Origin: Elusimicrobiota bacterium
GTDB lineage: Bacteria > Elusimicrobiota > Elusimicrobia > UBA1565 > UBA9628
Assembly (NCBI GenBank): GCA_028868375.1
Contig: JAGWUP010000008.1
Location: 4,751 to 68,750, forward strand
Direction: 5' to 3'
Length of the DNA stretch: 64,000 nt
This document shows, piece by piece, positions 3,345-59,176 of the stretch (position 1 is its first letter; every line of letters begins with the position of its first letter). A model generated the notes under the pieces. That model was given only the letters and a program-made list of their open reading frames with translations, was not told where the DNA came from and ran no database searches. Position numbers and translations under genes: made by a program.

Positions 3345-3370
3345 CCGGACCCCGCGCCGGTCTAGGCCTA

Positions 3371-3380: not shown

Positions 3381-3408
3381 GTCCTATTCCCTCTAGGGCC
3401 TACAGCCC

Positions 3409-6400
3409 ATGGCCGAGGGCCATCCGGCCTGTTACACTCGCTGCATGAAGGCGGCGCTCTGCCTGATCCTGTCGGCGGCCCTGATCCTTTCTTCCGGGGG
3501 GACGTCGCTGCTGGCCAAGCCGGTCACGCACTGGGATCCTCTCTACAGGCGGCTGCGAGTCAGCGACGACGGCGCCTCCACGCCGATCGCGCGCGTCGCC
3601 CGGATGATCGAGCATCTGCCGCCCAAGCTGAGGGCCGCGGCGCTTCAGATCGGCGGAGATCAGAGGCTGTCGCAGGCGGAGCGCGAGCGCGCGCTCGCAT
3701 TTTTGGTGCGCTATCGCCCGGCCCTGGCCGGCGACCAGAAGGCCGCCAAGGAGATCGACGCCACCCTCCACGACTTGCGCGACCCGGAGATCGATCCCGG
3801 CTTGACCTTGGCGCGGATGTTCGATCATCTCTCGCGGACGGCCCGGATGGCCGAGAGGGATCGCACCGACGTGCAGTGGGAGGGGGACCCGAGTCATGAG
3901 GCGACCGCTGTCGTCTCCAATTCCCTGATCGGCAATACGACGTTCATCCAGCATACGGTGCGCAAGGACGCGGACAACTCGATCCGCACGATCACGCGGC
4001 CGGCCGATCCCGACGATCCCTCCTCGCCGCAGCAGTTGGAGGCCGTCGTCTTGGAGCAGAGGCGGGGCGCCGACACCTTGCAGCGGGTCTGCTACAACCG
4101 CCGCATCCACGTGCTGCTGCGCAACCTGCGCAAGCTCTACTACGACCAGTGCTCCCTGGTGCGCCGCGTCAACAACGGGGAGCTGCTGCTGCAAGACACC
4201 CCCTGCCAGGACGCCAAGGGCTGGCGCGACGAGAAGCTGACGCCGGAGGTCCGGCGCAAGCTGCAGGCCTTCTACGACGGCAACCGGCGGCGCTTCCCGC
4301 CGGAGCTGCTGGATTACCTGGACTACCTCGACCGCATGGAGAAGCAGGGCCGGCTGGGCAACCTGCGCGACTGGCGCAAGCTGCAGAGCATGCAGCGCCT
4401 GGCCCTGGCCTTCTACAACGACAACCAGCTCCAGGTCTACCAGCGCGCGGTGATCATGGAGATCACCAATTATTTCTCGCAGTTGACAGGGGTGCAGCCC
4501 AAGCAGAAGCGGGGCGAGGAGATGCTGGACATCGGCGCGCGCAAGCTGGAGGATTTCCAGCGCCTGCTCGATCAGTTCCACAAGGGGCGCATGGAGGGCT
4601 ACTCAAGCTGGCTGGCCGAGCTGGGATTCTCCAAGCTCGACATCAAGAACCGCCGCGACGCCACCAGCCAGGCCATGGACATCGTCTCCGAGGCCTTCGC
4701 CGACGTGGCCTACGCCTACCAGGCCCAGCAGCGCCTGCTGGACCCGGACGCCGAGCTCTCCGGAGCGGAGCGCGACGCCGCCATCGCCGAGACCAGCCAG
4801 TGGCTGCAGCTGGCGCAAATCCAGGTGACGCGCTTCGAGATGCTGACGGAGTCCACCAGCCTGGACCATCTGGCCGCCGGCACCCTGCGCGGCATCGGCA
4901 TCCAGCGCTACGACGAGCAGATGAAGGGCCAGGCCCGCAGGCTGGCCAGCGCCGCGCGCCGGCAGTACTACCCGGCCATCGCCCAGGCCAGCCGGCAGGC
5001 CAAGCGGGAGCTGCTGCGCCAGACGGTCTCGGAGCTCTTCACGACCTTCAACGCCGCCTCCACCTCCTGGCAGTTCCGCCGCCCGCTGAGAGAGAAGCTG
5101 CGGCTGTTGGCGGCCAAGGCCGACCAGTTGCTGCAGCTCTACCTCTCGGCGCAGTTCGAGGCGGCGCGGGACAACCCCTCCTTCCAGCGCGACTTCACCG
5201 AGTCGCAGCGCGTGGAGGGCAGCGAGTACGCTTATTTCCTAAGCCATCTGCCCGCCAACTGCCGGCATGTCCGGGAGCTGGTGTCCTCCCTTAAGGAGGG
5301 GCTGCTGGCCCTGCTCAAGGAGCGGGAGGTCGGCTCCGTCCGGCAGGGCTTGGCTCCCCTGCGCGCGCGCTTTGCCGCCGTCGCGCGCGCCATCTTCGGC
5401 GACGGGGACATCCCGACGCCGCTGCAGATACAGCGCGAGTCCCAGGCCCTCTCCGTGCGGCAGGGCCGGCTCTTCGCCGCGGCCGCCCAGTTCGCCAACA
5501 AGATGCGGCTGTTCGACGCCATCAACGAGCTGGACATCTACGTCGACAAGTACGCGGACAACACGAAGTGGCTGCAGACCGAGAACGACGGCTTTTGGAC
5601 CCAGTTGACCAGCTTCCAGTGGCTTAACTACGCCTTCGGGAAGGTCCCCGGGCGCGAGGCCGCCGCCGACGCGATGCTTCGCAACGCGCACATCGATGCC
5701 ACCCTGCCGCTGCTGGGCGAGGTCCGCGTCGACTACAGGCGCGCCTTCGAGGAGCTTCGGGGCCATCCCGAGCGCCGCTTCAAGATCGACCAGGCCCTGC
5801 GCGAGGGGCGCTTCGACGACGCCTACCGGCTGGTGGCCAAGATCGATCCCGAGGGCGCGCAAAAGGCCGAGAAGGAGGCGCGGCTGGACAAGCTCGACGA
5901 GGACCCCGCCGACCTGCTCGATTTGGACGGCCTGATGAGCCATCAATATCAGGACACCGCCCAGACCCGGGCCTTGGGCAGCATCCAGGGCGCCTTCGTG
6001 CAGTTGCCGAAGCTCATCACCGGCTACGCCCTCGCCACGGCCGTCACCGACACCGTGATCAGCGCGGTGGCCTCGGCGGCGATCATGCCGGTGGCGCCGG
6101 TCTTGTTGGGCGGCCTGGGCGAGGCGACCCTCGGCGTCGGCAGGTTCGTCGAGCTCGTTCCGGCTTTGGACGAGACCGCCTCCGTCGGCCGCATGACGCG
6201 GATTATCCACGGCATCGCCAGCCTTTTCAACGCCGGGAGCTGGGCGGTGGAGTATCCCGGAAAGGTGATGATCTCCACGGCGCGCACGGCCCGCAAGGCC
6301 ATCGGCATGGCGGCTCCCCTGGAGGAGCGCAGCGCCTGGGTCCAGGCCGCCGCGATGTACTTGCCGGGCAGCGGGCTCTACGCCAACGTCGCCTGCGCCT

Positions 6401-9400
6401 CCATCGGCAGCACGGCGATCATGGGCCTGGTCTCGGGGGGGATGAGCGCCTTCACCTACGCCAGGGATCCCGAAACCTCGCGCTACGAGAACGCCGGGGA
6501 GGCCTTCATGCAGGGCCTGGCCCTGGGAGCCTCCTTCGGCTCCAAGGCCGGCATCATCACCCATATCAACCTGGTTCCCGTCTCCGCCTTTCGCGGGTGG
6601 GTCGGCGCCACGATGCGGACCGTCGCCGAGACCCCCGGGCCGGTCAGCCTGGGACTGCAGACCCTGGCCAAGGTGGTCCCGGGCTGGTCCAAGTCGATGC
6701 TGGCCGAGGCGGGGCCGCTGGGCGCCCTCTCCAACGGCGCCTTGGCCCTCAACCCCGTCCTCTACACCCTCGGCAAGGCGGCCGTCTGGGGCGGGGCGAT
6801 GATCGACGGCACCGTCAAGTACATCGGCATCGCCTGGCTGCCGCAGCAATTGGCCCAGGTCGGCATCATGCTGACGGGGCAGTTCAAGGACGCCCATGGC
6901 CACCGCGACGCGACGCTCGAGACGGAGGCGGGCGACACCGCCTTCATGGAGCGCCTGTCCGCGGCCCAGCAGTTCAGCACGAGCTTGGCCCAGTTAAGCT
7001 GGGTGCTGATGCCCTCCAACCCGGCCTTCAGCCACAAGGAGATCTCCGACCAGTCCCGAGCGGCGGCCGCCTTCAACCGAATCGCCCAGGACCCGGAACT
7101 GCTCCGCGTCGTCGAGTCGGCGCCGAAGGACTTCGCCATGCCGGTGGAGCTGCCCTTCTATTACCGCTCCCTGGGCGAGAACGCCCGCGCCGTCCTCGGC
7201 GCCGTTCCGCTGCTGGGCCGGGTCTTGGAGGAGCTGGGCCTGCGCAAGCCGGCCTCCACCGTCGAGTTCCAGGTCACCGAGCAGTGGCGGCAATTGGCCG
7301 CGCGGGAGAGGATGAGGAGGCGATTTAGCACCGCCGAGATCATGGCGATGGCGCTCATGCCCTCGGAGGCGGTCGGCCGGCTATTGGAGCGCTCGCGTCT
7401 GGGAGAGGTCCTGCGCGACCGCAAGGCCTTCATCGAGGAGTCCCTGGCCGACAAGGGCCCGCGCCGCGCGGGCGAGGACGGCCGGCCGCTGATCCTCACC
7501 CCCGCCACCCGCGATCCCGTCGACGTCCGGGTGTTCCGCTACCGCGATCCGGCCACCGGGCGCTGGCGGGACGCCCGGGAGGGTGAGGTCCGCCTGGTCT
7601 GCGCCGCGCCGGTGCCGCTGGGCCAGGCCAGGGGCCGCGATATCCTGGAGGTCGTCGATCCGCAGACCGGACACTGGGTGCCGGCGGGCACACCCGGCTC
7701 TCCCGCGGCGATGGTCCTTCCTTCGGCCAGGCCCGACCAGGTCCGCGTCACCAACGAGGCGATCATGGCGGCGCGCGACGAGCTGTCGGCGCGCTTGCGC
7801 GGGCGTTCCTGGCTGAAGAGGGCTTGGGACGGCCTGCTCGGCCGCGAGGTCTTAGACGGCGCGGCCTTGCGCGGCGAAATCCTCCTCTCCGAAGACGCGC
7901 TGGACTTGGGCAACGGCTGGCAACTCTCCGGCGAGCGGCTGGCGGACTTAAAGAAGGAGGCCGCCTTGGTCCAGCTCGACGCGATGCCGGCCACGCGCAA
8001 CCCGATCGCCTGGGCCCGCGACATGGTCCAGCGCGGCTTCGACACGGTGTTTAGGGGCCGCAAGCTGGAAAGCCAGCAGCAGCGCTGGATGCGCGGGCTG
8101 CGCCCGCAGGTGGAGGCCGACGCCAGGCGCCTGGCCGAGTCCGAGAAGGGCAGCCTGGGCGCGGTGCGCGAGCAGATCCTCGATCTGCTGGGCAAAAACG
8201 ACGACGGCGGCGACATCCTGACCGACGCCGGGGATCGCGCCGTCCTCCAAAGGGCGCTGGACGTCCTGGGCGGCCGCGGCCGCCTTTCCGACCGCCTGGA
8301 AAGCGCCGCTGTCCTGCTCGATGAGGCCGCCGCGCGCAAGGGGCAGGAGAAGGCCGGCCTGCCGCCGAACGCCTTCGCCAGCCTCTCGCGCTCACTGCGC
8401 GGCGAGGTCACCGCCGACTTGCTGATGACGGCCGCCCGCCGCCGCCTTCAGCGCCGCATCGACGCGGCGGGGCCGCTGGACCGCGCGGCCCTGGAGGCCC
8501 TGCGTCAGCCCCTGGAGACCGACGCGGCGCGCCAGGTCGTCATCGCGGAGATGCTCAGGACCTTCGGCCGCGACCGCCTGGCCGCCCGGGATGGGGAGCT
8601 GGACTCTGCCTCGGCGCGCGAGGGCGGCGAGCTCGACCGGGCCCTGGACCTTTACATGGACGTCTGGGAGCGCGCCGTCTTGGGCCAGATGGCCGGCGAG
8701 CGCGTCGCCGCGGTCAAGAACGGCCGCGATGTCCTCGAGTGGAGCATCCCGGCCCGGCGGCAGTTCAAGAATCGTTTCGGGGCGACCATCGGGGAGTTTC
8801 GCGCCTTGCAGAAGCGGGTGATCAAGGAGACCTTGGGCTTCTTCGCCGGCGGCTCGACCCTGGTCTTCGGCGCCATGCCCACCGGCTCCGGAAAGACGCT
8901 GACCAACTGCGTGCTGGCGGAGTTCCTAGACACCATGGCCCGCTCCCGGGGCCGCGACGGCGTGATCTATCTGACCACCAACCCCGACCTCGTCGCCCAG
9001 GCCTACGAGGACTACGTCGGCTTCTTCGGCAAGAAGCCGCCCTTCGAGATCATGACCTACAGCGACCTGTCCGCGCGCGTGGCCCAGGCCAAGGAGCAGG
9101 GCCTGCCCTCGCCGCTGGAGCGCAATTATCTGATCGGCGACGAGGGCGACGCCCCGGCCGGCCAGGTGCCGACCTCGGTGGGCGTCTTCAACGGCCGCAT
9201 GAGCAAGGCCCGCATCGATCCGGTGCAGCAGGCGATGCAGGGCGTCGCACGGCGCTTCGCCGACGGCGACCCCGCCTTCTGGGCCGAGGCGCGCGCCGCC
9301 CACGGCCTGGGCGGCGAGGGGCCGGTGGAGGGGCCGCGGTACGAGGAATTGATGAAGGACGAGGCCTTCCGGCAGCGCATCCTGGAGGGCGAGGGCGGGG

Positions 9401-11196
9401 GCTTCCGGCGCCTGCAGGCCCACTACGGCCTGACCGGGGTGATCGACAAGGATGCCTTCAGGAGGCTTAAGAAGAACGAGGCCTTCATGCGCGACTTCGA
9501 GGATTACGTCCAGGAGGCGGCCGAGGCCATCCGGGAGGCCGCCGTGACCTTGCGCAGCAAGAGCTTCCGCGACGGCATAGACCTGACCCAGTATCCCGAC
9601 TATTACGCCATGGCCGGGGGGGACGCCCAATTGGCCCGGCGCCGCTTGCAGGACCGGATGATCGAGGAATATGATCATATGGTGGCTTCCGCCAAGGCGC
9701 TGCACGGCAGCCTGGAAGGGCGCATGAGGATGTTCCTGGAAGGCGGCATGGAGTTCGCAAGCCTTCCCGAGCGCTCCAAGAAGATCGTTCCCGATCCGGA
9801 CGTCGAGCGGGACGTCTTGAACTTCAACAACGGCATCGCCTACGACAACTTGAGCACGCCGGTCGGCCCCTTCGGCTCCGCCTACTTCGGCCGCAACATC
9901 TCCAACGAGTTCGAGTCGGCCGGGCAGCTCAACTTCGCCCAGTTGATCGAGGAGGCCGTGGCCAACAAGGCGGTCTTCTTCTTGACTTCGGGGACCTGCC
10001 CCTTGAAGGTCCGCGAGCTTTTCCAGGGGCGCTACAGGGCCAAGTTCACCGGGGAGGTCTCGATTCCCGATCCCTTCGAGCCGCGCCTGGCCACCGGGGA
10101 GCTGGCCCAGGTGCTCGACATCGACGCCAAGATCGCGGACGCCAGGGCCGGCGAGCTGCAGATACAGTACGTCCACACCCTGCCGGAGCAGCAGGAGGTC
10201 CTGCGCTTGCTGGAGGAGCGCGGCGTCGACATGAGCCGCGTCTCGGTGCTGGTGCGGCCCGCCTCGGCCCTCGAGAAGCAGGAGCGCCTGGACATGGGGG
10301 TGCGCGCCGAGGCCAACGCAGAGGGCTTCAAGGGCCACAACGTGGACTTCGTCCTGCTGGTCGGGGCCGCCGGCCTGCGCGGCCTGGAGATGAACCTGAA
10401 GGACTACGCCGGGCGCTCCGCGCGCATGGACATACTCGACCCCCAGGAGCTCGACACGGGCAGCTTGACGCAGCTGATCGGCCGCCTAAGCCGCGGCCGC
10501 GCCTGGATGCTCAATGTGCGGCGCTTCACCAGCGTCACCCGCCTGGAGCGCCTGGAGCGCTCCGTCATCCTGCCGCAGGCGGCTGGGGATCTGGCCGGCC
10601 TGGTGGCGGAGGCGGCGTCTGACCGTTCCCCGACCGTCCAGGAAGCCGCGCTCAGGCTCTCGCAATCCATTCGCGCGGACTCGCCGGTCAATCCCATGTC
10701 GGTGACGCCGCAGGACATCATCGAGGCCGTGCAGCGGCACGACGCGGACACGCAGCGCTTCCTGCGCGCCGCCGAGGAGGGGAGGGGCGAGGGCTTCGTC
10801 GCCCAGCGCAACGATCTCTACGACCGCATCCTGCTGCCCATGCTCAAGAATCCCAATCTACCCACGCGGATCACGCGCTACCTGGATTTGATCTCCGAGG
10901 TCGGCCTGCTGCGCCGGGGCTTGAGCTCCCGGCAGCTGGAGTCTGTCCTCGGCGCCTCCGACCCATCGGCCGCGGCGATCCGGCTGTTCAGCGACCCGGC
11001 CGTCCTCTCCCAGCCGGGAGTGCTCGACGTGCTCATCGCCAGCCTCGGGCGCCGCGAGCAGGACCTGGCCATACAGTCCTCGGGCATCCTCGACGAGAGC
11101 AGGCCCTCCGCCCAAAACGGCCCGACGCTGGGCAAGCTGCTGCGGCCCGGCGGCTTGCGGGCCGTGACGCCGCGGGCCCTTCCCGGCCTTCCGTGA
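3409..11196 (+). CDS. giant protein (2595 aa): signal peptide, long helical N-terminal region, hydrophobic/Gly-rich core, embedded SF2 DEAD-box-like helicase core
   Basis: 7.8-kb ORF. An alternative start at ATG 3445 (MKAALCLILSAALILSSGGTSLLA) gives a cleaner signal peptide. Hydrophobic segments lie around aa 880-1200. Helicase motif I is AMPTGSGKT (8872-8898), motif II is LIGDEGDA (9139-9150), motif V-like is VGAAGLRGLEM, and motif VI is QLIGRLSRGR (10471-10500). Confidence 0.7.
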   Translation: MAEGHPACYTRCMKAALCLILSAALILSSGGTSLLAKPVTHWDPLYRRLRVSDDGASTPIARVARMIEHLPPKLRAAALQIGGDQRLSQAERERALAFLVRYRPALAGDQKAAKEIDATLHDLRDPEIDPGLTLARMFDHLSRTARMAERDRTDVQWEGDPSHEATAVVSNSLIGNTTFIQHTVRKDADNSIRTITRPADPDDPSSPQQLEAVVLEQRRGADTLQRVCYNRRIHVLLRNLRKLYYDQCSLVRRVNNGELLLQDTPCQDAKGWRDEKLTPEVRRKLQAFYDGNRRRFPPELLDYLDYLDRMEKQGRLGNLRDWRKLQSMQRLALAFYNDNQLQVYQRAVIMEITNYFSQLTGVQPKQKRGEEMLDIGARKLEDFQRLLDQFHKGRMEGYSSWLAELGFSKLDIKNRRDATSQAMDIVSEAFADVAYAYQAQQRLLDPDAELSGAERDAAIAETSQWLQLAQIQVTRFEMLTESTSLDHLAAGTLRGIGIQRYDEQMKGQARRLASAARRQYYPAIAQASRQAKRELLRQTVSELFTTFNAASTSWQFRRPLREKLRLLAAKADQLLQLYLSAQFEAARDNPSFQRDFTESQRVEGSEYAYFLSHLPANCRHVRELVSSLKEGLLALLKEREVGSVRQGLAPLRARFAAVARAIFGDGDIPTPLQIQRESQALSVRQGRLFAAAAQFANKMRLFDAINELDIYVDKYADNTKWLQTENDGFWTQLTSFQWLNYAFGKVPGREAAADAMLRNAHIDATLPLLGEVRVDYRRAFEELRGHPERRFKIDQALREGRFDDAYRLVAKIDPEGAQKAEKEARLDKLDEDPADLLDLDGLMSHQYQDTAQTRALGSIQGAFVQLPKLITGYALATAVTDTVISAVASAAIMPVAPVLLGGLGEATLGVGRFVELVPALDETASVGRMTRIIHGIASLFNAGSWAVEYPGKVMISTARTARKAIGMAAPLEERSAWVQAAAMYLPGSGLYANVACASIGSTAIMGLVSGGMSAFTYARDPETSRYENAGEAFMQGLALGASFGSKAGIITHINLVPVSAFRGWVGATMRTVAETPGPVSLGLQTLAKVVPGWSKSMLAEAGPLGALSNGALALNPVLYTLGKAAVWGGAMIDGTVKYIGIAWLPQQLAQVGIMLTGQFKDAHGHRDATLETEAGDTAFMERLSAAQQFSTSLAQLSWVLMPSNPAFSHKEISDQSRAAAAFNRIAQDPELLRVVESAPKDFAMPVELPFYYRSLGENARAVLGAVPLLGRVLEELGLRKPASTVEFQVTEQWRQLAARERMRRRFSTAEIMAMALMPSEAVGRLLERSRLGEVLRDRKAFIEESLADKGPRRAGEDGRPLILTPATRDPVDVRVFRYRDPATGRWRDAREGEVRLVCAAPVPLGQARGRDILEVVDPQTGHWVPAGTPGSPAAMVLPSARPDQVRVTNEAIMAARDELSARLRGRSWLKRAWDGLLGREVLDGAALRGEILLSEDALDLGNGWQLSGERLADLKKEAALVQLDAMPATRNPIAWARDMVQRGFDTVFRGRKLESQQQRWMRGLRPQVEADARRLAESEKGSLGAVREQILDLLGKNDDGGDILTDAGDRAVLQRALDVLGGRGRLSDRLESAAVLLDEAAARKGQEKAGLPPNAFASLSRSLRGEVTADLLMTAARRRLQRRIDAAGPLDRAALEALRQPLETDAARQVVIAEMLRTFGRDRLAARDGELDSASAREGGELDRALDLYMDVWERAVLGQMAGERVAAVKNGRDVLEWSIPARRQFKNRFGATIGEFRALQKRVIKETLGFFAGGSTLVFGAMPTGSGKTLTNCVLAEFLDTMARSRGRDGVIYLTTNPDLVAQAYEDYVGFFGKKPPFEIMTYSDLSARVAQAKEQGLPSPLERNYLIGDEGDAPAGQVPTSVGVFNGRMSKARIDPVQQAMQGVARRFADGDPAFWAEARAAHGLGGEGPVEGPRYEELMKDEAFRQRILEGEGGGFRRLQAHYGLTGVIDKDAFRRLKKNEAFMRDFEDYVQEAAEAIREAAVTLRSKSFRDGIDLTQYPDYYAMAGGDAQLARRRLQDRMIEEYDHMVASAKALHGSLEGRMRMFLEGGMEFASLPERSKKIVPDPDVERDVLNFNNGIAYDNLSTPVGPFGSAYFGRNISNEFESAGQLNFAQLIEEAVANKAVFFLTSGTCPLKVRELFQGRYRAKFTGEVSIPDPFEPRLATGELAQVLDIDAKIADARAGELQIQYVHTLPEQQEVLRLLEERGVDMSRVSVLVRPASALEKQERLDMGVRAEANAEGFKGHNVDFVLLVGAAGLRGLEMNLKDYAGRSARMDILDPQELDTGSLTQLIGRLSRGRAWMLNVRRFTSVTRLERLERSVILPQAAGDLAGLVAEAASDRSPTVQEAALRLSQSIRADSPVNPMSVTPQDIIEAVQRHDADTQRFLRAAEEGRGEGFVAQRNDLYDRILLPMLKNPNLPTRITRYLDLISEVGLLRRGLSSRQLESVLGASDPSAAAIRLFSDPAVLSQPGVLDVLIASLGRREQDLAIQSSGILDESRPSAQNGPTLGKLLRPGGLRAVTPRALPGLP

Positions 11197-12929
11197 GCGC
11201 GGCCGCCGCGCTGCTGGCGCTGCTCTACGCGGGGCTGATGGCCGACGGCTTGCGCCCGGATTGGGCCTGGGCCGTCGGCGGATTGTGGCTGGGCGGCTGC
11301 CTGTGGGCTTGCCGGCGCCGAAGCGCCCGTCCGCTGGCGGTCTGGCTGCCTTATCTGGCCTGGGCGCTGCTGTCCGCCGCGGCTTGCGGGGGCAGGCTGG
11401 CCGGCCTTGGCGCCCTCTCGCGCTGGGCCGGGGCGCTGGCCTTCTACGCCGCGGCCGTGACCTTGTGGCGGCCGCGCCACCGGCGCCGGTGGCTTAAGAT
11501 CTTGCTCCTGGCCGGGCCGCTGCTGGGCTTGGCCGCCCTGGCCACCGGCTGGACCCAGGTGCGGGTCTACGGCTCCGGAGAGTCGATGACGGGTTTTCTG
11601 CCGCCCTATTACAACTACACCTGCTTCGTCCTGGCGGCTTGCGGCGCGGCCGCCTTGGGGGCATTGGGCGGCGAGGCGGAGGCCGGCGGCTTGCTCGCCC
11701 GCCCGGCCTTGGGGGTCGTCGCCGGGCTCTGCGCGTCCTTGCTGGTGGTGGCGCGCGCCCGCTCGGCGCTCTTGGGGCTTCTGGCCGGCGCGGTCGTGGC
11801 GGCCTACCGCCAGCATAGCGGCCGCGTCCTCAAGCTGGCCGCGGCCCTGTTGGGCGGCAGCGCCGTGGTCTTTACGGCCGCGATGATGGCCCTGCACGTC
11901 AGCGGCCCGCTCTTGATGCTCAAGCTCGACAAGGCCAAGGCGTTCAAGCGGCCCCAGTTGTGGCTGGCGGCCGCCCAGGTGATCGCCGACCATCCCGTCC
12001 TAGGCGAGGGGCCGGGGCAGTTCGAGAGCGGCTTCCGGCGCCATGTCTTTGCGGCCGGCTACGGGGTGGCGCGCTACCGCTTCACGACGGCCTACGCCCA
12101 CAGCGAGCCGCTGCAGTTGGCGGCCGACACGGGCCTGGTCGGCGCAGTACTCTGGGCCGGCGGTTTGTGGGCCAGCCTGGGTCCGGCCGGCGCCTCTCTA
12201 GAGGCCCAGGCGGCCGTGGCGGCCGCGGCGGCGATGACGGTGCCGCTGGCCTTCGACAATATGCTGCAATTGCCGGCGCTGGCCTTCCTGTTCTTCTCGG
12301 CTCTGGCCGTGGGATTTTCCGACGAGCGCCGGCAAGAGGATCGCGCGGCCCCGCGCGGTTGGGCCGCCGCGGCCCTCTTGGTCGGCGTCCTGGCCCTGGC
12401 GGCCGCGGCGGCCGCCCGCGTCCGCGTGGAGCTTTCCAAGGAGTCCGGGCCGCCGGCCGCGCGGCTTGCGCGCGCGCGCCGCCGGGAGGACTTATGGCCG
12501 CGCGACCCGGGGGGCTTTCAGGCGCAGGCCCGAGCGGACATGGGCATGCGCCCCGCGCGCGTCGAGGAGGCCTTGTCGGCGCTGCGGCGGGCCTCGGCCC
12601 TGGCCCCCTACGACGCCTTCGTCCTGGTCTGGGGCGCCGAGCTTCAGCGCGCCCGCGGGGCCTGGCCGCAGGCGCGGAAGCTGGCCTTGCGCGCGCTGGA
12701 GCTGGAGCCGGATTTTCTCCAGGCGCGGCTCTTGCTGGCGGAATCCCTGCTCAGGCAGCGCCCGGCTGCGGCGCGAGCCGAGCTTTCGGAGCTGGAGCGC
12801 CGCCGCGCCGCGCTGCGCGCGGAGGGCCTCTACGGCCCGGAGCGCTCGCGCTTCACCGACTACGACCGCCAATTGGGCTCGCTCGACCAACGGCGCGAGG
12901 CCCTTCTTCGGGCAGCGCTTCATTCGTGA
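11193..12929 (+). CDS. O-antigen ligase family (Wzy_C / WaaL / PglL-like) polytopic membrane protein with C-terminal TPR-like repeats
   Basis: About 10 predicted TM helices. Large loop with TAYAHSEPLQLAADTGLVGAVLW (a Wzy_C-like H/E/R loop). C-terminal LALRALELEPDFLQARLLLAESLL TPR-like helices. The GTG start overlaps the TGA of the giant gene (GTGA). Confidence 0.6.
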   Translation: MSAAAALLALLYAGLMADGLRPDWAWAVGGLWLGGCLWACRRRSARPLAVWLPYLAWALLSAAACGGRLAGLGALSRWAGALAFYAAAVTLWRPRHRRRWLKILLLAGPLLGLAALATGWTQVRVYGSGESMTGFLPPYYNYTCFVLAACGAAALGALGGEAEAGGLLARPALGVVAGLCASLLVVARARSALLGLLAGAVVAAYRQHSGRVLKLAAALLGGSAVVFTAAMMALHVSGPLLMLKLDKAKAFKRPQLWLAAAQVIADHPVLGEGPGQFESGFRRHVFAAGYGVARYRFTTAYAHSEPLQLAADTGLVGAVLWAGGLWASLGPAGASLEAQAAVAAAAAMTVPLAFDNMLQLPALAFLFFSALAVGFSDERRQEDRAAPRGWAAAALLVGVLALAAAAAARVRVELSKESGPPAARLARARRREDLWPRDPGGFQAQARADMGMRPARVEEALSALRRASALAPYDAFVLVWGAELQRARGAWPQARKLALRALELEPDFLQARLLLAESLLRQRPAAARAELSELERRRAALRAEGLYGPERSRFTDYDRQLGSLDQRREALLRAALHS

Positions 12930-12964
12930 GTAAAAACCGGCCCCGCGTTATATAGAATCCAACC

Positions 12965-13990
12965 GTGGAACAGTTGGCGCGGGTCCGCCGCCGCATCGCC
13001 ACGCTGCTGGGAGTGATCCTCGCCGTCCTGGCCGGCGGGGCGGCGGGCTACCATTTCCTGGAGGGCTGGCCGTGGCTGGACGCGGTCTACATGACCGTCA
13101 TCACGCTGGGGACGGTCGGCTACGAGGAGACCCATCCGCTCTCCAGCGGCGGGCGGGTGTTCACGATGCTGCTGATCTTGGGCGGCATCGCCCTGATGAC
13201 CTACGCCTTCTCGACGATCACCGCGATCATCGTCGAGGGAGAGCTTGCCGGGGCGTTGAAACGGAGGCGCATGCAAAAGGAGATCGGCCGCTTGTCCGGC
13301 CACTACATCGTCTGCGGCAGCGGGCATGCCGCGGGCGTGATCGGCTCGGAGCTGCTGCACACCCGCAGGGAGTTCGTCGTCATCGACGTCGACCAGGAGG
13401 CCCTGCGCCGCTTCTCGGAGCGCCTCGGCGCCGGGCGCTATTTCACGGTGGAGGGCGACGCCGCCGCCGACGAGACCCTGCGCGCGGCCGGCGTGGCGCG
13501 CGCGGCCGGGATTTTCGCCGTCCTGCCCCGAGACCAGGACAACGCCTTCGTGGCCCTTTCGGCCAAGGGCTTGAATCCCGGCATCCGGGTGGTCAGCGCG
13601 CAGAAGGAGCTGGGGGTGCGCGAGCAGTTGCTGCGCAGCGGGGCCGACCGCGTCGTCAATCCCGAGTACATCGGGGGCTTGCGGATGGTCTCCGAGATGA
13701 TCCGCCCCGCGACCGTGGGATTTTTGGACGCGATGATCCGCGAGCGCGGCCAGACCGTCCGCTTCGAGGAGGTCGGCGTGCCAAGCGGCTCGCCCTTCGT
13801 CGGCCGCCCCTTGGAGGCCCTGCGGGCCGCGGCGGCCGGCCCGCTGTTGGTGGCCCTGCAGCCCGCCGGAAGCGGCTCCTACGAGATCAATCCGCCTTCC
13901 TCCAGGCCGATCGCCGCCGGCGACGCCCTGGTGCTGCTGGGAGAGATCGGGCAGCTCGAGGCCCTGCGCCGCGGCGTGGGGGGACTTTAA
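12965..13990 (+). CDS. two-TM potassium-channel family protein with a C-terminal RCK/TrkA-N domain (MthK/Kch-like); selectivity filter is TVGYE
   Basis: TM1-pore-TM2 layout with TVITLGTVGYEETHP (filter codons 13112-13126). Rossmann motif IVCGSGHAAGVIGSEL follows. GTG start. Confidence 0.75.
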   Translation: MEQLARVRRRIATLLGVILAVLAGGAAGYHFLEGWPWLDAVYMTVITLGTVGYEETHPLSSGGRVFTMLLILGGIALMTYAFSTITAIIVEGELAGALKRRRMQKEIGRLSGHYIVCGSGHAAGVIGSELLHTRREFVVIDVDQEALRRFSERLGAGRYFTVEGDAAADETLRAAGVARAAGIFAVLPRDQDNAFVALSAKGLNPGIRVVSAQKELGVREQLLRSGADRVVNPEYIGGLRMVSEMIRPATVGFLDAMIRERGQTVRFEEVGVPSGSPFVGRPLEALRAAAAGPLLVALQPAGSGSYEINPPSSRPIAAGDALVLLGEIGQLEALRRGVGGL

Positions 13991-14130
13991 ATCAACATCT
14001 AAATTAGTTAAACTCAGGCACTAAGCTGGCGTAGCCGGCTTGCGTCTGACCGCAGGGAATGGTTTGACTCCGAAGAATTCGGGAAGAAAACCATGGCCGG
14101 ATAGGGAAAATGCGTCAGGCCATGACGTCC

Positions 14131-14349
14131 GGCGCTGCCACGCAATAACATGAACATTCTGGAGGCCCGAGCTTGAGACGATTTCAAGGCGCGAAGAGAG
14201 GGCATGGCGGTAGTCATGCGGGCGATGAGCAACGCGGAAATCGGCCAACCTCGGGCTTCCCCACAGAGCCGGGCCGTTTTTGGGCTGCGCCTTCGTCGCC
14301 CCGCTCCAAAATCGCGCACGGCAGAGCGACCATCTTATTGCGTGGCAGC
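14131..14349. repeat. ~219-bp element bounded by a perfect 18-bp inverted repeat (GGCGCTGCCACGCAATAA ... TTATTGCGTGGCAGCGCC); MITE-like or structured-RNA element
   Basis: Arms at 14131-14148 and 14332-14349 are exact reverse complements. The interior is lower in GC. The right arm ends 5 nt before the transposase-like ATG. A related element is at 58934-59153. Confidence 0.5.
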
Positions 14350-14354
14350 GCCTA

Positions 14355-15257
14355 ATGGGCCGCCCCCAGCGCTTGCAGCTTCCGGGAGCTTGCTATTACG
14401 TGCTGCTCGAGGGAAACAACAGGCAGGATCTCTTCCTGTCGAGCCAGGACCGCCGCCAGTTCTTGGCCCTGCTGCGCTCCTGCAAGGAGCGCCACGAGCT
14501 GAAGGTCTACGCCTATTGCCTGCTGCCGCAGAAGGTCCACTTGCTCGTCGAGACGGACCGGCCCAACCTCGCCGCCGCCATGCAGAACCTGGGCAGCGTC
14601 TATACCAAGCGCTTCAACGCGGCCCACGATGTCTCCGGGCACCTTTTCGCGGGCCGCTACAAGGCCTGGCTGCTGGACAAGGAGCGCTTCCTGGCCGAGG
14701 CCACGCGGGCCATCCACCTGCAGCCCTCGCGCTCCGGCCTCAGGGACAAGCCTTGGCGCTACCCCTGGTCCAGCTGCTCCGCCTACGTGGAGTCCGAAGC
14801 GGGGGAACCCCTGATCGATTCCCAGCCCGTCCTGGCCCTGTTCGCCTCCGGGCGCCTGAAGCAGTCGGTGCGCTACATGCAGTATCTCAAGGACAGGCTG
14901 AAGTCCTCTTCCGCCGTCTTGCTGCCGGTGGCCCGCGGCCAGGTCATCGGCGGAGAGGAGTTTCTGGCGCGCATGCGAGCCAGGGCCGGGCGAGTCGAGC
15001 CGGCCCGGCCATCCCCGGAGGCGGAGCGCCAGGTCCTGGCGGAGGTCGCCAAGCGCCACGGCCTGGAGCCCGAGGAGCTGACGGGGCCCGGCCGGCGCCG
15101 CAGGGTGGCGGCCGCCAGGCGAGAGGCGGCCTACCGTCTGTCCAAGGAATTGCGCCTGGGCGTGGCCGAATTGGGGCGCCTGTTCCACCGCACTCCCAGC
15201 GCGCTCTGCCAGGCCCTGCGGACGGCTGAAATATCAACTAAAAAACTTAACTCCTGA
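14355..15257 (+). CDS. IS200/IS605-type Y1 (HuH) transposase-like protein fused to a DnaA-C-terminal-like HTH domain; HuH motif degenerate (K-V-H)
   Basis: N-terminal YYVLLEGNNRQDLF, then VHLLVETD, then a Tyr-region YTKRFN, match the Y1_Tnp fold. The C-terminal VAAARREAAYRLSKELRLGVAELGRLFHRTPSALCQALR resembles the DnaA C-terminal DNA-binding domain. The first His of HuH is replaced by Lys (14532-14540). Confidence 0.6.
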   Translation: MGRPQRLQLPGACYYVLLEGNNRQDLFLSSQDRRQFLALLRSCKERHELKVYAYCLLPQKVHLLVETDRPNLAAAMQNLGSVYTKRFNAAHDVSGHLFAGRYKAWLLDKERFLAEATRAIHLQPSRSGLRDKPWRYPWSSCSAYVESEAGEPLIDSQPVLALFASGRLKQSVRYMQYLKDRLKSSSAVLLPVARGQVIGGEEFLARMRARAGRVEPARPSPEAERQVLAEVAKRHGLEPEELTGPGRRRRVAAARREAAYRLSKELRLGVAELGRLFHRTPSALCQALRTAEISTKKLNS

Positions 15258-15265
15258 CACTGACC

Positions 15266-15293
15266 CTAGGACCTAAAATAGCGTAGGTCCTTT
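15266..15293 (+). promoter_or_regulatory. AGGACCTA-N8-TAGGTCCT inverted repeat including TAGGTCCTTTA, ~65 nt upstream of the 4939-aa gene
   Basis: Read directly: ctaggacctaaaatagcgtaggtcctttaatatc. The same TAGGTC(C)TTT decamer occurs at 122 and 3371. AGGAGGAG lies further downstream. Confidence 0.35.
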
Positions 15294-15358
15294 AATATCA
15301 GAGGAGGAGCCAAGGGTTCCTACCGCTTTGGCGCCGCCAAAGCTACTCTAAGGGCCTG

Positions 15359-18300
15359 ATGAAGCGCCTGCTGCGCCAGGCCGTGGCCTGCCTGACCGTC
15401 GCCAGCCTGCTGATCACGGCTCCCGGCCTGGGCCTCTACAGCGCTCTAGCCGCCCAAATGGGGGAGGCGGCCGGCGATATCCCCGAGGGCCTGCCGCCGC
15501 GATTGCCGGGCTCGCCGATCGGCCCGGCGGGGGGCGTCGGCATTTCGGCGCAAGCCGCGGCGAATTGGCGGCGGCGTTTGGATGCGGCACGAGCCCTTGG
15601 AGGAGCCGGCGCCGTTTCCCAACCGGCCCCGCCCCAATCGGCCCAATCGGCACCTGCTCAAGCCTGGCGATCGCTACGAGCGTCGGTCGCCGCGGGCTTG
15701 GTCCCGCCGGGCCAGGGCGGGCGGCAGGCGGCTGCGTCTCCGGCGGCTGCGGCGCAGAGCGGCGCAAGCCCCGAGGCCGCGTCGGGATTGGCGGCCAGGC
15801 TGTTCGACCACTTGAAAAATCTGGGCGGCGGACTGCGCCGCTTGGTGTTCGATTCCGAGGAGGAAGAGCCGGCGGAGGAAGTGCCAGCGGCGGAAGTGCC
15901 AGCGGCGGAAGTGCCCGCTGCGGAGGGGCGGCGGTCGCCCGCTTTAGCGCCCGCCCTGGCGCCGGCATCCGAGCCGGATCCAGCGCAGCCGGAGCCGGCG
16001 CAGCCGCCGGCCGTTGCGAAGCCGGTCGGCGCCAGGCATTGGCTGGGAGCCGCGGGGATGACGGCCCTGTCCGGGGCGATCACCTGGAAATTCGGCGCGC
16101 CGAAGCTGGCGGGCTGGGCCGCCGCCTTGATCCACGCGCCGGCCGCCGCCCCGGCGATCGCGGTGGCGCTGACGGCGCTGCTGACTTACAGCACCGCCAA
16201 GCAGCAGTTCGGCGCGCTCTTGGAGCGCCGCCGGGCCCATCGGCTGGCCGAGATCCGCGAGCGGGAGGGCGAGCTGGCCGCGGTCGATTGGGAGCTGGAG
16301 CAGGCGCCCCGTCCCGCTCCCAACACGGCGCCGCACGAGATCGTCGGCTTGGCCTTGATCGTCGCGGCGGCGGCGGCGGGCCACGCGCTCTGGAGCGGCC
16401 CGGGAGCGGTCGGGGGCTTTCTGCTGGGGGCGTGGTTCTCGGATCGTTGGCTTAGCTTGCGACGGGATCGTTTCAAGGAGGACCGGCAGAAGCGCGACGA
16501 GCTCTTGCGCCGGCGCAAGGCCTTGGGCGGCTCCGAGGCGCAAGAGGCCTCGCCGGACGGCCCCGTCGCGGACGCGCTCGAGCCGCCCCTGGGCGGCTCG
16601 CCGCCCAGGGGCCCTCCCGCCGGGCTGTCGCCTCCGGGAACGGAGCCCTCAGCGGCTTCGCAAGGTCCTCGCGTCTTCGAGGACTTTTTCGGTTTTAGGT
16701 GGGTGCGCGGCCGGCTCCACGAGCCGGCCGCCGAGCCCTCTTCGGGACGGCTAGAAACGCTGACGGCCGGAGCGTTGATCCTGGGCTCGGCCTTCGCCGG
16801 CTTCGCCGCCTTCGGCCTGCTTGGGGCGGCGGGGGGATTGGTCGCGGGCTACGCCCTGGCCTTCCATCGGCAGGCCCGGCTGGCGCGCGGCAGCGCCCGC
16901 GAGGTCCTGCCGCTGTCGGCCACGACGGAGCAGGTCATTCGGGCGCTGGCTCGGGACGGGGGCTGGACGCGCCAGCGCTTGCTGGAATTGATGGCGCCCT
17001 TCGGCTTGGGCGAATCCAGCCCGCTCGACGCTTGGCTGGCGGTCCATGATTGGCTGCGCGTCCACGGCGACCGCGAGCAGTTCAAGCGCTTCGACCATGA
17101 GAAGTCCGACCATTCCTGGCGCGAGCTGGCCAATGTCCGCTACAGCGAGGGCCGGCGCGGCGCGCTCGAACGCCTGGCCGAGGTCCAGAAGCATTCCGCC
17201 GGGGCCTTCGTCCGCTTCCCGTACCATCTCTTCGACCTGTTCGTGCTGGGCTATTTCCGGCAGAACATGGCCTACGAGCTGTTCCATTCCGGGGAGGATT
17301 TCCTGGGCGCCCTCCAGCCGGGCCTGCGCGAGAAATACCTGCTCCATGCCGCAAGCCAGGCGGTGGCCGCGCGCGGCTTCAAGCGCTCGCTGCGCGCCCA
17401 GCCGATCTACCGCGCCTTGGACCGCTACCTGTGGACGCCGTGGCTGGGACCCCTGGGGCAGTTCTTGTCGCGCCGCCTGACCCTGGCCGTCGCCTCGGCG
17501 GTGGCGATGGGGGTGCTGGGCGGCTTGGCCCCGGTGCTGACCGTCTTCGGCCTGCCGCTGTTGTCTCTGTCCTTGACCACGATCCCGCTGCTGGGCCCCG
17601 CCCTCATCGCGATCGTCAACGCCCTCCCGGTGCTGGTGGGCTGGCTTCCGTTCTGCGGCCATGCCCTAGCCCCGGTGGCCGCGGCCGCCGCGCAGAAGCT
17701 CTTGGCCGACCTGGTCGTAGGCCCGATGCTCAACACCCTGATCCTGTCGAGCTTCCTGACCTTCCCGCACGCGGTGCGCCAGAGGCTGGCCGAGCTGGAC
17801 GCCGCCGACCCCGCCCGGCGCCGCGGCCTGCGCTCCCAGGAGCTCTGCGCGGCGGCGCTGGCCGTGGCCTCGTCCTCGGCGTACTGGCGCGCCAACTTGA
17901 AGTCGTTCCTGGCGATGATGACGGTCGGCGCCGAGATCGAGGGCATCATGACCTACGCGGACGTCGCCGATCAGGCGGCCAGCGCCGTCAGCGGCGCGCA
18001 CGTGACGCTGTTCCACGCCCTGGGCTCGGCGGTGGAGCGGCCCCGCGGAAAGAGCCTGATCCCCTTCGGCGGGGCGATCACCTGGGGCAACGTCCTGCTT
18101 TACAAGGCGCAGAATTGGCTGGGCTTCAACCTCTCCGACGCGGTGGCCCATGGCGTCTCCGTTTTCATCGGAGACCGGCTGCCGGGGGTGGTCCATGCCC
18201 AGACCCTGCTGGCCGTGGCCGAGGGGCGCTACCGCGGCGCCCGCGGCCCCAAGCCCGCGCCCTTCGACAAGACCCTCTATCGCAAGTCTCCGGGCCAGGT

Positions 18301-21300
18301 CTGGCGGCGCTTGAAGGACCTGGCCAGCCGCGGCGGCGACCTAGAGTCCCGGATCGCCCAGGCCAAGGCGCGGGCCGAGGCGGCGAGGCGGGAACTGGCG
18401 AGCGAGCGCAAGCGCTTCGCGGCGCTGGAGGCTTCCCTGCCGCCCTCGGTGACCCCCGCCCAGCGCGCCGAACTGGAGCGCTTGAACGCGCGCTACGCCT
18501 CCGCCCGGGACGAGGACTACGCCCGCGGCAAGCTGGCGGAGGACGGCGACCTGGCCGCCGCCCCGGACGCGGCGCGGCTGGCGCGCTTGCGGGCGCTCAA
18601 GCAGAGTTACGCGGACGATCTGGTGGCGCGCGACGGGCGGCGCCCGGCCGTCTCCGACGCGCTGGCCGCGCGCCGGGCCCAGCTGCTGGCGCTGGAGCGC
18701 AGCCTCTCCTCCGTCGTGGAGAAGGGGACGGTGGCGCTGCCGAATGGGACGGCGGCCCGCCTGCCGGACGCCACCGTGACGCAGATCGCCCAACTGGTCA
18801 AGACGATCGAGGACCTGCGCTCCCAGGCCAAAGGGGAAATGGCCAACCGCGACGCCGAAAGCCGGCTCTTGGGAGTGCTCGCGCAGGCGCGGCACAACGC
18901 CCTGCGCGAGCGCCGCAACGGGCGGGGGATGAGCGATTTTCACCGCAACCTGGCGCGCCTGGACACCGTGATGAGCCTGGCCCTCTCCCTCAACGAGATC
19001 GCGGCGGCCGAGCAGGCCATCCACCAGATGATGGCCCTGCTGGACGCCAAGATCGCCAAGATCAACGCCGCCGCGCAGCAGAACCAGCAGAACCTGGCCC
19101 AGGCCCAGCAGAATCAGCAGCAGACTCAAAAGTGGAAAGACGAGGCCAACCAGGTCATCAGCGCCGACCAGAGCACCCAGAAGACGATCGTCGACTACGA
19201 GAACCGCACGGCCCTGGCCGCGGAGCGCGTCGGCTCCTTCCAGCACGACCTCTCCGCGCTGATCGGCGTGATCAACGCCCGCGACGGCGGCCAGAGCCGC
19301 GACGCGCTGACGGAGTACGCGCGGCGCCTGGCCCTGCTGCCCCAGGTGGCGGACTGGCGGACCAACGGCAATCCCAACGATTCCTCCGCATTCTCCCTGA
19401 AGACCTTCCAGGACGACCTCTCCCAGGTCGACGGCTATATCCAAAAGGTCCAGGACGGGATCGGGCAGCTGCGCCAGACTCCCCTGGAGGCGGCCGGAGT
19501 GGCCATCATCCTGGTGCCTGGGCCCGACGTGACGATCCACAATCCGACCAAGGAGCAGACGCTGCAGATACTGGCCGACCGCAAGACCTATTGGCAGAGG
19601 CAGTCCCAGCAGTACCGAGACGACCTGGCGCGGATCAATCGGATGATGGATCCGGGCAACACGAACACGACGACCGACGAGTTCGGCGATTCCGCTCCGG
19701 AGTCGCTGCCGCGCTACCTCAGCCAAGAACAGGGCATCGAGCAGACGGCGCGGGCCAATGTCCAGCAGTACGCGGCCCAGATCGACGCGGCCGCCGACCA
19801 GATCAACTCCGTGGCCGGCTCCAACCTGCCCCATCTCTCCGGCCTGCCGCTCGACCAGCTTGAGAGCGTCATCACGAATTACGGCAACCTGGCGCGCGCG
19901 GTCAAGCTTCCGGACAGCGGCGGCAACGACGCGGCCTACCTGGCCTCGATGAACATGCTCTCCTTGGCCAAGCTCATCCCCTACGCGGCCGACAACGTGG
20001 TCCAGTGGGCCAAGGCCGACGCGACGATCACCTCGATCAACTCGGCGATGGCCACGACCCTGCCGCAGGCCAAGACGCGCCTGACGGCCATCGTCCAGGT
20101 GTTCGACGACGTCCTGGCCGACGACGACGCCGACGTGGCCTACGTCACCCATGGCGGCGACCCGCAGGCCCTGCTTAACCGCAAGATCGATCTGCTGCAG
20201 AACAAGGTGCTGCCCGCGCTGCAGGGAGCCGACGATCTGCTGCGCAACGTGCTGATTCCCTACCAGCGGCAGAGCATCGCCCAGGTCCAGGTCGACGCCT
20301 CGGCGCCGCTCTACCAGCTTCTGACCAGCCAGCAGACGCTGGCCCAGAGCGTCTCGCAGCTCTACAACTCCGACGTGGCCTGGGCCCTGGCCAGCTTCGG
20401 CGGCAGCAAGAGCGACCCCGCCGGCAGCCGCGCCAGCATCGCGGCCTGGAAGAAGACGATCGAGCAGAACTTGAACGGCTACGACGACGCCCAGGGCCAC
20501 CATGAGGGCGTCAACGAGTACATCGTCGAGGTCCAGCATCGCAAGGATCCCAACTACGCGGGGCCGGAGACGACGGACTATTTAAAGGACCCCAACTATC
20601 CGGACGGCGGCCCCTTCAGCCTGCCGCGCAAGATCGCCCTATACTCCGCCGAGCGCGCCCAGCGCGTCGCCCAGCTCAACGCCCAGGACGCCCAGATCAA
20701 CGACATCCTAAGCCATATCGAGACCGTCTCCAAGGGGCGCTACAACCTGCAATCCTTCCGCCTGCCCACCGACCTGACCGGCGACGCCGCCGGCGCCAGC
20801 CGGGCCCAGGCGCTGTTCGACTCCAACCTGATCCAGAACCTCGGCGGAGAGCTCCAGCAGATCGCGGCCGACAACCAGTCCTCCGGCGCCGGAATCTCGG
20901 TGGCGGACCAAGGCTCGGCCGGGCCTCCGACCGGCACGCAGCCGCCGATCACGGCCTCCGACGCCCAGACCCTTTCCCTGCTGGCCTTGGACGCGGCCAA
21001 GCGCATCGTCCCGTCTTCCTTGCAGCAGCCGCAGACCGCGCCGGCCTCCTACGCCTTGGCCCGCTTGCTCTACTCCAACGGCACCCTCTCGGCCGCCCAG
21101 GACGCCCTGACCAACCAGATCCCCGTGGCCGAGACGGTCCTGGCCCATGCCCAGGCGGTGCTGACGGCGGCGGACGACACCAGCAAGGACGAGGCCTACG
21201 TCGACTCCAATGGGACCAGCGAAAGCGCCGACTCCGTCTACGCGCGCAAGGTGGCGCTTTTTAGCAGCCTCAACGCCTTTTTGCAGGAGGGGGCCAACTT

Positions 21301-59153: not shown

Positions 59154-59176
59154 GCAGCTCCTTAGCGAGGTGATCG

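Follow-up and report, generated by a model that had tools for sequence, protein, structure and literature searches.

A TPR-bearing Wzy_C protein encoded next to a giant ATPase-bearing protein in an Elusimicrobiota genome: a possible general glycan ligase with an optional giant neighbor

The analyzed DNA, hereinafter the window, is a stretch of 64,000 nucleotides of contig JAGWUP010000008.1 of an Elusimicrobiota bacterium, with a G+C content of about 70%. It contains a gene encoding a 578-aa membrane protein with a Wzy_C domain and tetratricopeptide repeats (TPR), hereinafter the ligase, which overlaps the end of a gene encoding a giant protein of 2,595 aa. The ligase was 100% identical to the NCBI entry "O-antigen ligase family protein [Elusimicrobia bacterium]". 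The two genes and their junction are listed below (ORF, open reading frame; GC3, G+C content of third codon positions; SF2, superfamily 2).

3409..11196, + strand: upstream giant gene, 2,595 aa, with a signal peptide, a central hydrophobic region (aa ~861–1016) and an SF2 ATPase module (aa ~1785–2400)
8761-10608, + strand: SF2 ATPase module of the giant, aa ~1785–2400
11193..11196, + strand: GTGA, the ligase start codon over the giant stop codon, read from the sequence
11193..12929, + strand: Wzy_C-TPR ligase gene, 578 aa, GTG start, TGA stop (ORF list, translation, GC3 0.90)

Bases 11190–11199 read tccGTGAgcg, where the GTG occupies positions 11193–11195 and the TGA positions 11194–11196, giving a 4-base overlap; the first-pass annotation had thus placed the ligase start on the stop codon of the giant gene correctly. 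The giant ORF and the ligase ORF are both real coding frames, because their G+C content by codon position follows the pattern typical of real genes (GC3 of 0.93 and 0.90 versus second-position values of 0.46 and 0.57, respectively). The GTG at 11193 is supported as a credible start of the ligase, since the next in-frame start (ATG, codon 16) would delete helix 3–16 (predicted local distance difference test, pLDDT, 97), residues 1–21 align with the N-termini of the homologs (G19 and R21 being nearly invariant), and the same 4-bp GTGA junction is present in two relatives with 46–51% protein identity (L001 and L058). A promoter and terminator scan of positions 1–16000 gave results at chance level, and no terminator was seen in it between the giant gene, the ligase gene and the K+ channel gene that follows. 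Start/stop overlaps of 4 bp are very common among co-directional genes; taken alone, such an overlap would indicate co-transcription and probable translational coupling, and nothing beyond these.

Thirty-four homologs of the ligase were found, with an identity of 35–51% and, when complete, a length of 515–582 aa; all homologs with a source name were named Elusimicrobia. A profile built from 32 core sequences was compared with the PDB, and conservation was also counted in a set of 35 sequences. The features of the ligase protein are as follows (TM, transmembrane; AF2, AlphaFold2).

11193..12314, + strand: 12-TM WaaL-like core, aa 1–374, helices 3–16, 23–38, 52–64, 68–91, 94–126, 140–158, 170–187, 190–207, 211–233, 305–328, 336–354 and 361–374
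11721..12158, + strand: Pfam Wzy_C (PF04932) match, aa 177–322, 44.2 bits versus a gathering score of 31.7
11760..11762, + strand: codon of Arg190, the first conserved Arg, invariant in the 35 and in the 32 sequences and aligned with the Arg of 'GTRGA' in WaaL 7TPG
11949..11951, + strand: codon of Arg253, the second conserved Arg, in the periplasmic loop, invariant and aligned with the Arg of 'vgvRLkIW' in 7TPG and with a conserved Arg of PglL-like 9RMK
12099..12101, + strand: codon (cac) of His303, the putative catalytic His of the AHSE motif, (nearly) invariant and aligned with the His of 'AHND' in WaaL 7TPG and of 'SHN' in 9RMK
12255..12275, + strand: D355-N-M-L-Q-L-P361 motif, with D355 invariant and M357, L358 and P361 at least 90% conserved
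12351..12434, + strand: additional 13th TM helix, aa 387–414, an AF2 helix beyond the 12-TM WaaL core, preceded by the charged loop 375–386
12453..12923, + strand: TPR domain, aa 421–577, putatively periplasmic, stacked helices in the AF2 model

Wzy_C was matched by 35 of 35 family members. Of the two Pfam families that the first-pass annotation had proposed for a profile search, PF04932 was thus recovered, whereas PF13425 was not among the Pfam matches of the ligase protein. The TPR remained below the threshold in Pfam for the single ligase sequence (E 0.07–0.2) and were clear at the family level, where TPR_19 was found in 24 of 35 members and the profile matched the TPR of OGT at E~1e-22; consequently, the description of the product as a membrane protein with Wzy_C and TPR holds. 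Invariant features of the alignment were PPYYNYT (137–143), R190, R253, GEGPG (271–275), AHSE (302–305) and D355. The pattern H-S-x9-G-xx-G around H303–G317 fits the O-antigen-ligase motif. The NCBIfam model of the exosortase-associated O-glycosylation ligase, TIGR03097 PEP_O_lig_1, scored 17.5 bits for the ligase, below its cut-off of 188.1.

In the AF2 model (pLDDT 93), the core of the ligase matches a 12-TM fold with a large periplasmic loop before TM10, like that of the solved WaaL. The 32-sequence profile matched WaaL 7TPG (E=5e-17, 65 bits) and the 610-aa "oligosaccharyltransferase" 9RMK_A (E=1e-6, 31 bits), and R190, R253 and H303 fell on conserved Arg, Arg and His residues in both alignments. 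Judged by these profile matches, the ligase belongs to the WaaL/PglL (Wzy_C) superfamily, as had been proposed initially. Charge counts in the 35 sequences agree with an N-in topology under the positive-inside rule, and the loop 234–304 carrying R253 and H303 is therefore placed in the periplasm; the charge pattern also puts R190 on a loop outside the cytoplasm. The C-terminus of the solved WaaL is cytoplasmic. Since helix 387–414 adds one crossing to the 12-TM WaaL-like core, the TPR domain would face the periplasm, on the same side as the catalytic loop. The Arg/Arg/His triad does not discriminate WaaL from PglL, because it is named as common to both (Schulz et al. 2013, PMC3643930).

The distribution of the family was assessed by a pattern scan with one genome per species, which yielded 51 loci, nearly all of them in Elusimicrobia. 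No genome gave more than one ligase-family locus, and this held for a complete genome of 3.8 Mb and for a contig of 3.1 Mb as well. Two settings recurred. About one-third of the loci lie in a conserved giant-protein block with the order of a ~900–1,100-aa protein, a 2,450–3,114-aa giant, the ligase, usually a K+ channel, a ~300-aa Y1_Tnp/DnaA_C helix-turn-helix (HTH) protein and a ~4,400–5,200-aa giant, and many others lie in Wzx/Wzy-type glycan clusters. Among nine homologs looked up by the exact protein, a giant was encoded upstream in five (P0003, P0004, P0007, P0022 and P0032), and the other four (P0006, P0013, P0033 and P0024) sit in glycan clusters with genes for glycosyltransferases, sugar-nucleotide enzymes, a Wzx-like flippase, Bac_transf, nonulosonic acid and an MsbA/PglK-like ABC transporter. 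A KdsD-like SIS+CBS gene lies directly downstream of one ortholog, and an MsbA/PglK-like ABC gene adjoins another. In the loci lacking a giant, the Pfam counts for the 99 nearest neighbors included radical SAM (9), GT1 (7), NDP-sugar epimerase/dehydratase (6), Polysacc_synt_2 (5) and SIS (4), among others. The orthologs of loci L003, L060, L077 and L078 are encoded with O-antigen-like genes; a protein-glycosylation cluster would look alike. In the neighbor-joining tree of the ligase, giant-adjacent and glycan-cluster loci were intermixed in both main branches, which looks like one orthologous family that has changed its position repeatedly.

A second Wzy_C paralog of about 400 aa without TPR was found 5–8 kb from the TPR-bearing ligase in four loci (L003, L010, L030 and L060). 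Two of its genes, which keep the AHN..G..G motif, have the following positions.

L003:15642-16847: ~400-aa Wzy_C paralog
L060:4390-5583, - strand: ~400-aa Wzy_C paralog

The paralog is homologous to the TPR form over the whole core (hhalign 98%), is 38–57% identical between genomes and thus as conserved as the TPR form, and had no PDB match when searched as a single sequence. It could be a polymerase or a true WaaL; plausibly, in clusters with two Wzy_C proteins one is the polymerase and the other the terminal transferase, the latter role suiting the TPR form better. This bears on the reading that the TPR form is no ligase but a Wzy-type polymerase, or another membrane protein of exopolysaccharide assembly whose TPR scaffold polymer export. 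Such a role would agree with the location in Wzx/Wzy clusters, with the inclusion of polymerases in the Pfam family Wzy_C, Wzy and WaaL being treated jointly (PMC4594306), and with TPR domains being common in polysaccharide export scaffolds according to a reference cited in PMC2943079. It nevertheless appears very unlikely, the Arg/Arg/His residues and the fold matching WaaL best and the second Wzy_C protein of the same clusters being able to fill the polymerase role. Wzy polymerases are usually highly variable, whereas the ligase is 35–51% identical across the phylum and has one locus per genome in the scan.

The giant proteins encoded upstream form two sequence clusters, Ga (the window, L001 and L058) and Gb (the rest), linked only through the stretch from Walker A to Walker B (hhalign 98.8%, E=1e-16). 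In every giant, one or more central hydrophobic segments precede the ATPase, which suggests, as far as the sequence goes, that the N-terminal part is periplasmic and the ATPase part cytoplasmic. Relatives of the ATPase module of the giant were rare, 27 among 1.84 billion representatives at E<=1e-3 (HMMER), nearly all of 2,100–2,900 aa; the homologs for structure prediction of this region were taken from the same search. Neither single-sequence nor profile searches of the giants against the PDB gave a significant match. The motifs TGGGKT, DExD, SGTAG, GGRGLD and QxxGR, together with a long insert between motifs II and III, suggested SecA; a specific likeness to SecA was not separable from generic SF2 helicases, as the fold matches helicases and SecA equally. 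No Ser/Thr/Pro-rich, glycosylation-prone stretches of low complexity were found when they were looked for in the giant. In the 3.1-Mb contig (L044:1283-9288), the upstream giant appears as two overlapping ORFs of 1,572 and 1,418 aa, reflecting either a frameshift, a pseudogene or a sequencing error.

The conservation of the pairing was counted in both directions. Anchored on the ligase, the count was limited to the 37 genome loci whose upstream sequence spans 3 kb or more; a giant was present upstream in 12 of them, and two-thirds of the ligase loci had no giant within 10 kb. For the reverse count, a metagenome scan with an alignment of six Gb-type giants gave nine loci with a readable downstream region, and the ligase followed the giant in three (L062, L064 and L071). 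The K+ channel gene came directly after the giant in another three (L061, L065 and L067), leaving no room for a 1.7-kb gene, and other ORFs occupied the place of the ligase in L069, L072 and probably L075. The distance from the giant stop to the ligase start was -4 only in the window, L001 and L058; it was -1 in L064, 24–94 bp in four loci, 0.8–1.9 kb in five loci and 5.7 kb in L012. Since the distances vary by lineage, the tight coupling is a feature of one clade. Thus, neither the ligase nor the giant requires the other as a neighbor, and the pairing is optional both ways. Moreover, the block keeps a functionally unrelated K+ channel, so that conserved order is weak evidence of a common function. 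Most likely, the pairing is inherited synteny kept in some lineages, not an obligate enzyme–substrate pair.

In several Gb-type loci, the interval between the giant and the following gene of the block contains small ORFs of ~140–200 aa, irrespective of whether the ligase comes next.

L069:18495-19450: small ORFs after the giant
L071:18058-19082: small ORFs after the giant
L072:18321-19740: small ORFs after the giant
L075:13782-14399: small ORFs after the giant

The first-pass annotation had taken the tight coupling to suggest that the giant is a dedicated glycosylation substrate of the ligase, or that the ligase is its membrane partner. This step is not supported, the overlap being confined to one clade and orthologs of the same identity lying in Wzx/Wzy clusters. 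The underlying proposal fared better in part: the giant has a signal peptide, so that its topology would not preclude glycosylation, and the gene pair, whose co-occurrence had been suggested as a check, does recur, but in only about one-third of the loci in each direction (12/37 and 3/9). A dedicated protein O-oligosaccharyltransferase (O-OTase) or partner, in which the TPR would recognize the exported part of the giant and translational coupling would set the stoichiometry, is therefore considered unlikely. It would account for the 4-bp overlap kept in three genomes and for a ligase gene directly following a homologous giant in 12 or more genome loci, in both main branches of the tree and at 35–50% identity, as well as in five of the nine homologs looked up by protein. 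There are also precedents: 21 of 31 pglL genes adjoin a pilin substrate gene (PMC3643930), and the O-OTase genes wsaB and wsfB are part of S-layer glycan gene sets that are treated along with the S-layer protein genes sgsE and spaA (PMC2943079). It is opposed by the ligase-less blocks, in which the channel (L061, L065 and L067) or other ORFs (L069 and L072) follow the giant, by the giant-free majority of ligase loci, and by distances of up to 5.7 kb outside the single clade. With a single family locus per genome in the scan, the same enzyme must serve the glycan clusters elsewhere. The giants also diverge far faster than the ligase, Ga and Gb having only the ATPase stretch in common, which argues against a co-evolving recognition pair, and the giant lacks low-complexity Ser/Thr/Pro regions. 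The broader version, in which the ligase is the dedicated O-OTase of giant ATPase-bearing membrane proteins, decorates the exported parts of the block giants (~1,000 aa, ~2,600 aa with the SF2 ATPase, and ~5,000 aa) that its TPR recognize and was later relocated to glycan clusters, is likewise improbable.

The reading preferred here, held tentatively and with less than even confidence, is that the ligase is the Elusimicrobia ortholog of a general, periplasm-facing undecaprenyl-pyrophosphate (Und-PP)–glycan ligase of the WaaL/PglL superfamily, with a lean toward protein O-OTase. Its generality is supported by the one locus per genome in the scan, the intermixing of the two settings in the tree, adjacency in about one-third of the loci in both directions and an overlap found in one clade only. 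A terminal-transferase role is indicated because orthologs cluster with a Wzx-like flippase, Bac_transf, glycosyltransferases, sugar-nucleotide enzymes and a second Wzy_C protein. The lean toward an O-OTase arises because PglL and the S-layer O-OTase WsfB are reported to join a C-terminal TPR motif to the Wzy_C core (PMC2943079), an architecture that the solved WaaL does not have. The size of the ligase and its 13th TM helix fit an O-OTase as well, as does the alignment of the DNMLQxP motif with the PglL-like chain, and the WaaL-sized paralog without TPR is counted on the same side. This lean is slight, and WaaL is a close rival.

Several observations weigh against the preferred reading. Sequence cannot separate WaaL from PglL (PMC3643930), and Elusimicrobia carry lipopolysaccharide (LPS) genes (PMC11257099), so that a WaaL may be needed. 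Pfam PglL_A (PF15864) and Wzy_C_2 were matched by 0 of 35 family members (for PglL_A, among the families listed at E<=1). The KdsD-like SIS+CBS or MsbA-like ABC genes adjoining some orthologs would suit an LPS ligase, the giant is without the Ser/Thr/Pro-rich stretches typical of many PglL substrates, and the periplasmic placement of the TPR is derived from the number of helices and the charge bias, neither from coordinates nor from experiment.

Consequently, it is possible, though less probable than the preferred reading, that the ligase is the true WaaL of the lineage, joining Und-PP-linked O-antigen to lipid A-core at the periplasmic face, with the TPR docking a further envelope component such as a chain-length regulator or LPS transport parts and the adjacency to the giant functionally meaningless. 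WaaL gives the best solved-structure and sequence match, the Arg/Arg/His residues are conserved, and PglL_A is absent. The LPS genes of Elusimicrobia and the orthologs in O-antigen-like clusters, beside the KdsD-like and MsbA-like genes and a second Wzy_C protein that is a possible polymerase, point the same way, and the unrelated K+ channel in the block shows that gene order is kept regardless of function. By contrast, the solved WaaL (413 aa, 12 TM) has no added domain, whereas the ligase adds a TM helix and a TPR domain of 160 aa. Other WaaL proteins are generally similar in size to the solved one. The conserved paralog of ~400 aa has the length of a WaaL, retains the His motif and might itself be the WaaL, and no LPS genes are present within the 64-kb window. 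The first-pass annotation had regarded clustering of the protein with WaaL next to LPS genes as grounds for rejecting its proposal, and in this respect the outcome was mixed: the closest structure is a WaaL, and some orthologs lie in glycan clusters.

Under the preferred reading of a general ligase, a glycan would be assembled on Und-PP by a Wzx/Wzy-type pathway and flipped to the periplasmic face, where the ligase would transfer it en bloc to an acceptor, the periplasmic TPR domain helping to bind the acceptor or a partner. By the slight lean stated above, the acceptors would be exported proteins (Ser/Thr/Tyr), which would make the ligase a general O-OTase. If the central hydrophobic segment of the giant spans the membrane, its N-terminal ~850 residues would be periplasmic, and the giant could then be one of many acceptors, possible but not dedicated. 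In the window, co-transcription of the ligase gene with the gene of the 2,595-aa giant is probable, and so is translational coupling between the two.

Taken by itself, the ligase is an unremarkable representative of a superfamily already known; the surrounding giant-protein block is less ordinary. Seven co-directional ORFs occupy positions 177-31499 (+ strand) of the window, separated by short gaps except for one of 289 bp. The first encodes a 1,055-aa exported protein and is followed by the genes of the 2,595-aa giant and the ligase, then by those of a K+ channel, an HTH protein and the 4,939-aa giant, and finally by an Ala/Pro-rich ORF of 438 aa. The block is conserved across many Elusimicrobia; its three large proteins have signal-peptide-like N-termini and almost no Pfam annotation, and the literature search found no published description of it. 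The remaining annotated members are as follows.

177..3344, + strand: 1,055-aa exported protein, first gene of the block, with a signal-peptide-like N-terminus and weak homologs upstream of giants elsewhere
12965..13990, + strand: K+ channel (Ion_trans_2 + TrkA_N + TrkA_C by Pfam), 35 bp downstream of the ligase
14280..15257, + strand: 325-aa Y1_Tnp-like + DnaA_C HTH protein (Pfam)
15359..30178, + strand: 4,939-aa exported giant, the best-conserved block member, with phmmer matches in L005, L059, L020, L044 and L055

In most blocks the TrkA-type K+ channel keeps its position whether the ligase is there or not; it is an odd companion for giant envelope proteins. In the HTH protein, an IS200-like Y1 transposase domain is fused to a C-terminal HTH of the DnaA type, and other loci likewise have its gene immediately upstream of the ~5,000-aa giant; a 341-aa ORF at 14204..15229 was rejected as a wrong-frame artefact (GC3 0.50), the real gene being 14280..15257. 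The 4,939-aa giant, with phmmer scores of 270–2,500 bits to the five loci, is much better conserved than the upstream giant and contains a TolC/OEP-like stretch (aa 2846–2941) and several hydrophobic segments in its first 800 residues. A defence system was considered and discarded, as PADLOC gave no match for the 1,055-aa protein, the upstream giant, the ligase, the HTH protein or the 438-aa ORF.

Elsewhere in the window, positions 45015-50927 (+ strand) encode a classical autotransporter of 1,970 aa with eight PATR repeats and a C-terminal beta-barrel domain, which is Gly/Ser/Thr-rich, unlike the giants. A 214-aa protein at 56579-57223 (- strand) matched Pfam Der1-like (PF04511) with 36.8 bits versus a cut-off of 26.6; this family is known mainly from eukaryotic endoplasmic reticulum-associated degradation and is unusual in a bacterium. 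The end of a cell-division cluster (MurB, FtsQ, FtsA and FtsZ) lies at positions 57242-61551 (+ strand), with a PilT/T2SSE-type ATPase and a deoxynucleoside kinase encoded behind it; the presence of this cluster indicates that the region belongs to the core chromosome.

In the mostly uncultured phylum Elusimicrobia, the ligase family would be a candidate for the enzyme attaching surface glycans. Should it prove to be an O-OTase, it would be a TPR-bearing enzyme of a phylum from which none of the characterised enzymes cited here comes, and such enzymes are of interest for glycoengineering, as the TPR domain could define the choice of acceptor. A block of giant exported proteins that evolve fast, deeply conserved as a gene arrangement, also emerges from the comparison, and the recurrent but optional insertion of the ligase into it offers the testable hypothesis that the giants are glycosylated envelope machinery.

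Among known systems, the nearest published analogue of the giant, though not of the ligase, is a group of giant proteins of Omnitrophota in which TM regions are combined with divergent SecA_DEAD domains (West-Roberts et al. 2023, bioRxiv 10.1101/2023.11.21.568195), for which a ligase neighbor is not mentioned. Like these, the giant is very long and fast-evolving, belongs to an uncultured lineage and carries a divergent SF2/SecA-like ATPase behind an exported or membrane part; this is a likeness and not a shown membership.

For the ligase, the best match among solved structures was WaaL of Cupriavidus metallidurans (PDB 7TPG/7TPJ), at an identity of only ~15%. R190, R253 and H303 of the ligase match the conserved Arg, Arg and His of WaaL (R215, R288 and H338 in E. 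coli). The solved WaaL has 413 aa without an added domain, whereas the ligase has 578 aa with a 13th TM helix and ~160 aa of TPR, and the alignment with WaaL stops short of the DNMLQxP region. The PglL type (PglL of Neisseria; the PglL-like chain 9RMK_A, 610 aa) is similar to the ligase in size and likewise carries a C-terminal extension after the Wzy_C core, although its match was weaker than that of WaaL (31 versus 65 bits). The two have the Arg/Arg/His triad and a P-xx-G-x-G stretch in common, and DNMLQxP aligns with H400-S-M-L-E404-Y-P406 of PglL-like 9RMK, M, L and P being kept and H400 and E404 of N. meningitidis PglL being replaced by Asp and Gln in the ligase family (residue list in PMC3643930). 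Unlike in PglL systems, a pilin gene is absent near the ligase, whose neighbor is a giant ATPase protein or a glycan cluster.

The S-layer O-OTases were compared by description, not by sequence. WsfB of Paenibacillus alvei resembles the ligase in combining Wzy_C with a C-terminal TPR motif, and in the WsaB and WsaA system of Geobacillus stearothermophilus a TPR protein is encoded next to WsaB (PMC2943079). Both come from Gram-positive bacteria, unlike the ligase of Elusimicrobia, and the large neighbor of the ligase is a protein bearing an SF2 ATPase, not an S-layer protein. The structural genes sgsE and spaA are considered alongside the S-layer glycan gene sets of which wsaB and wsfB are part (PMC2943079), and both settings of the ligase, next to a giant or within a glycan cluster, resemble this arrangement.

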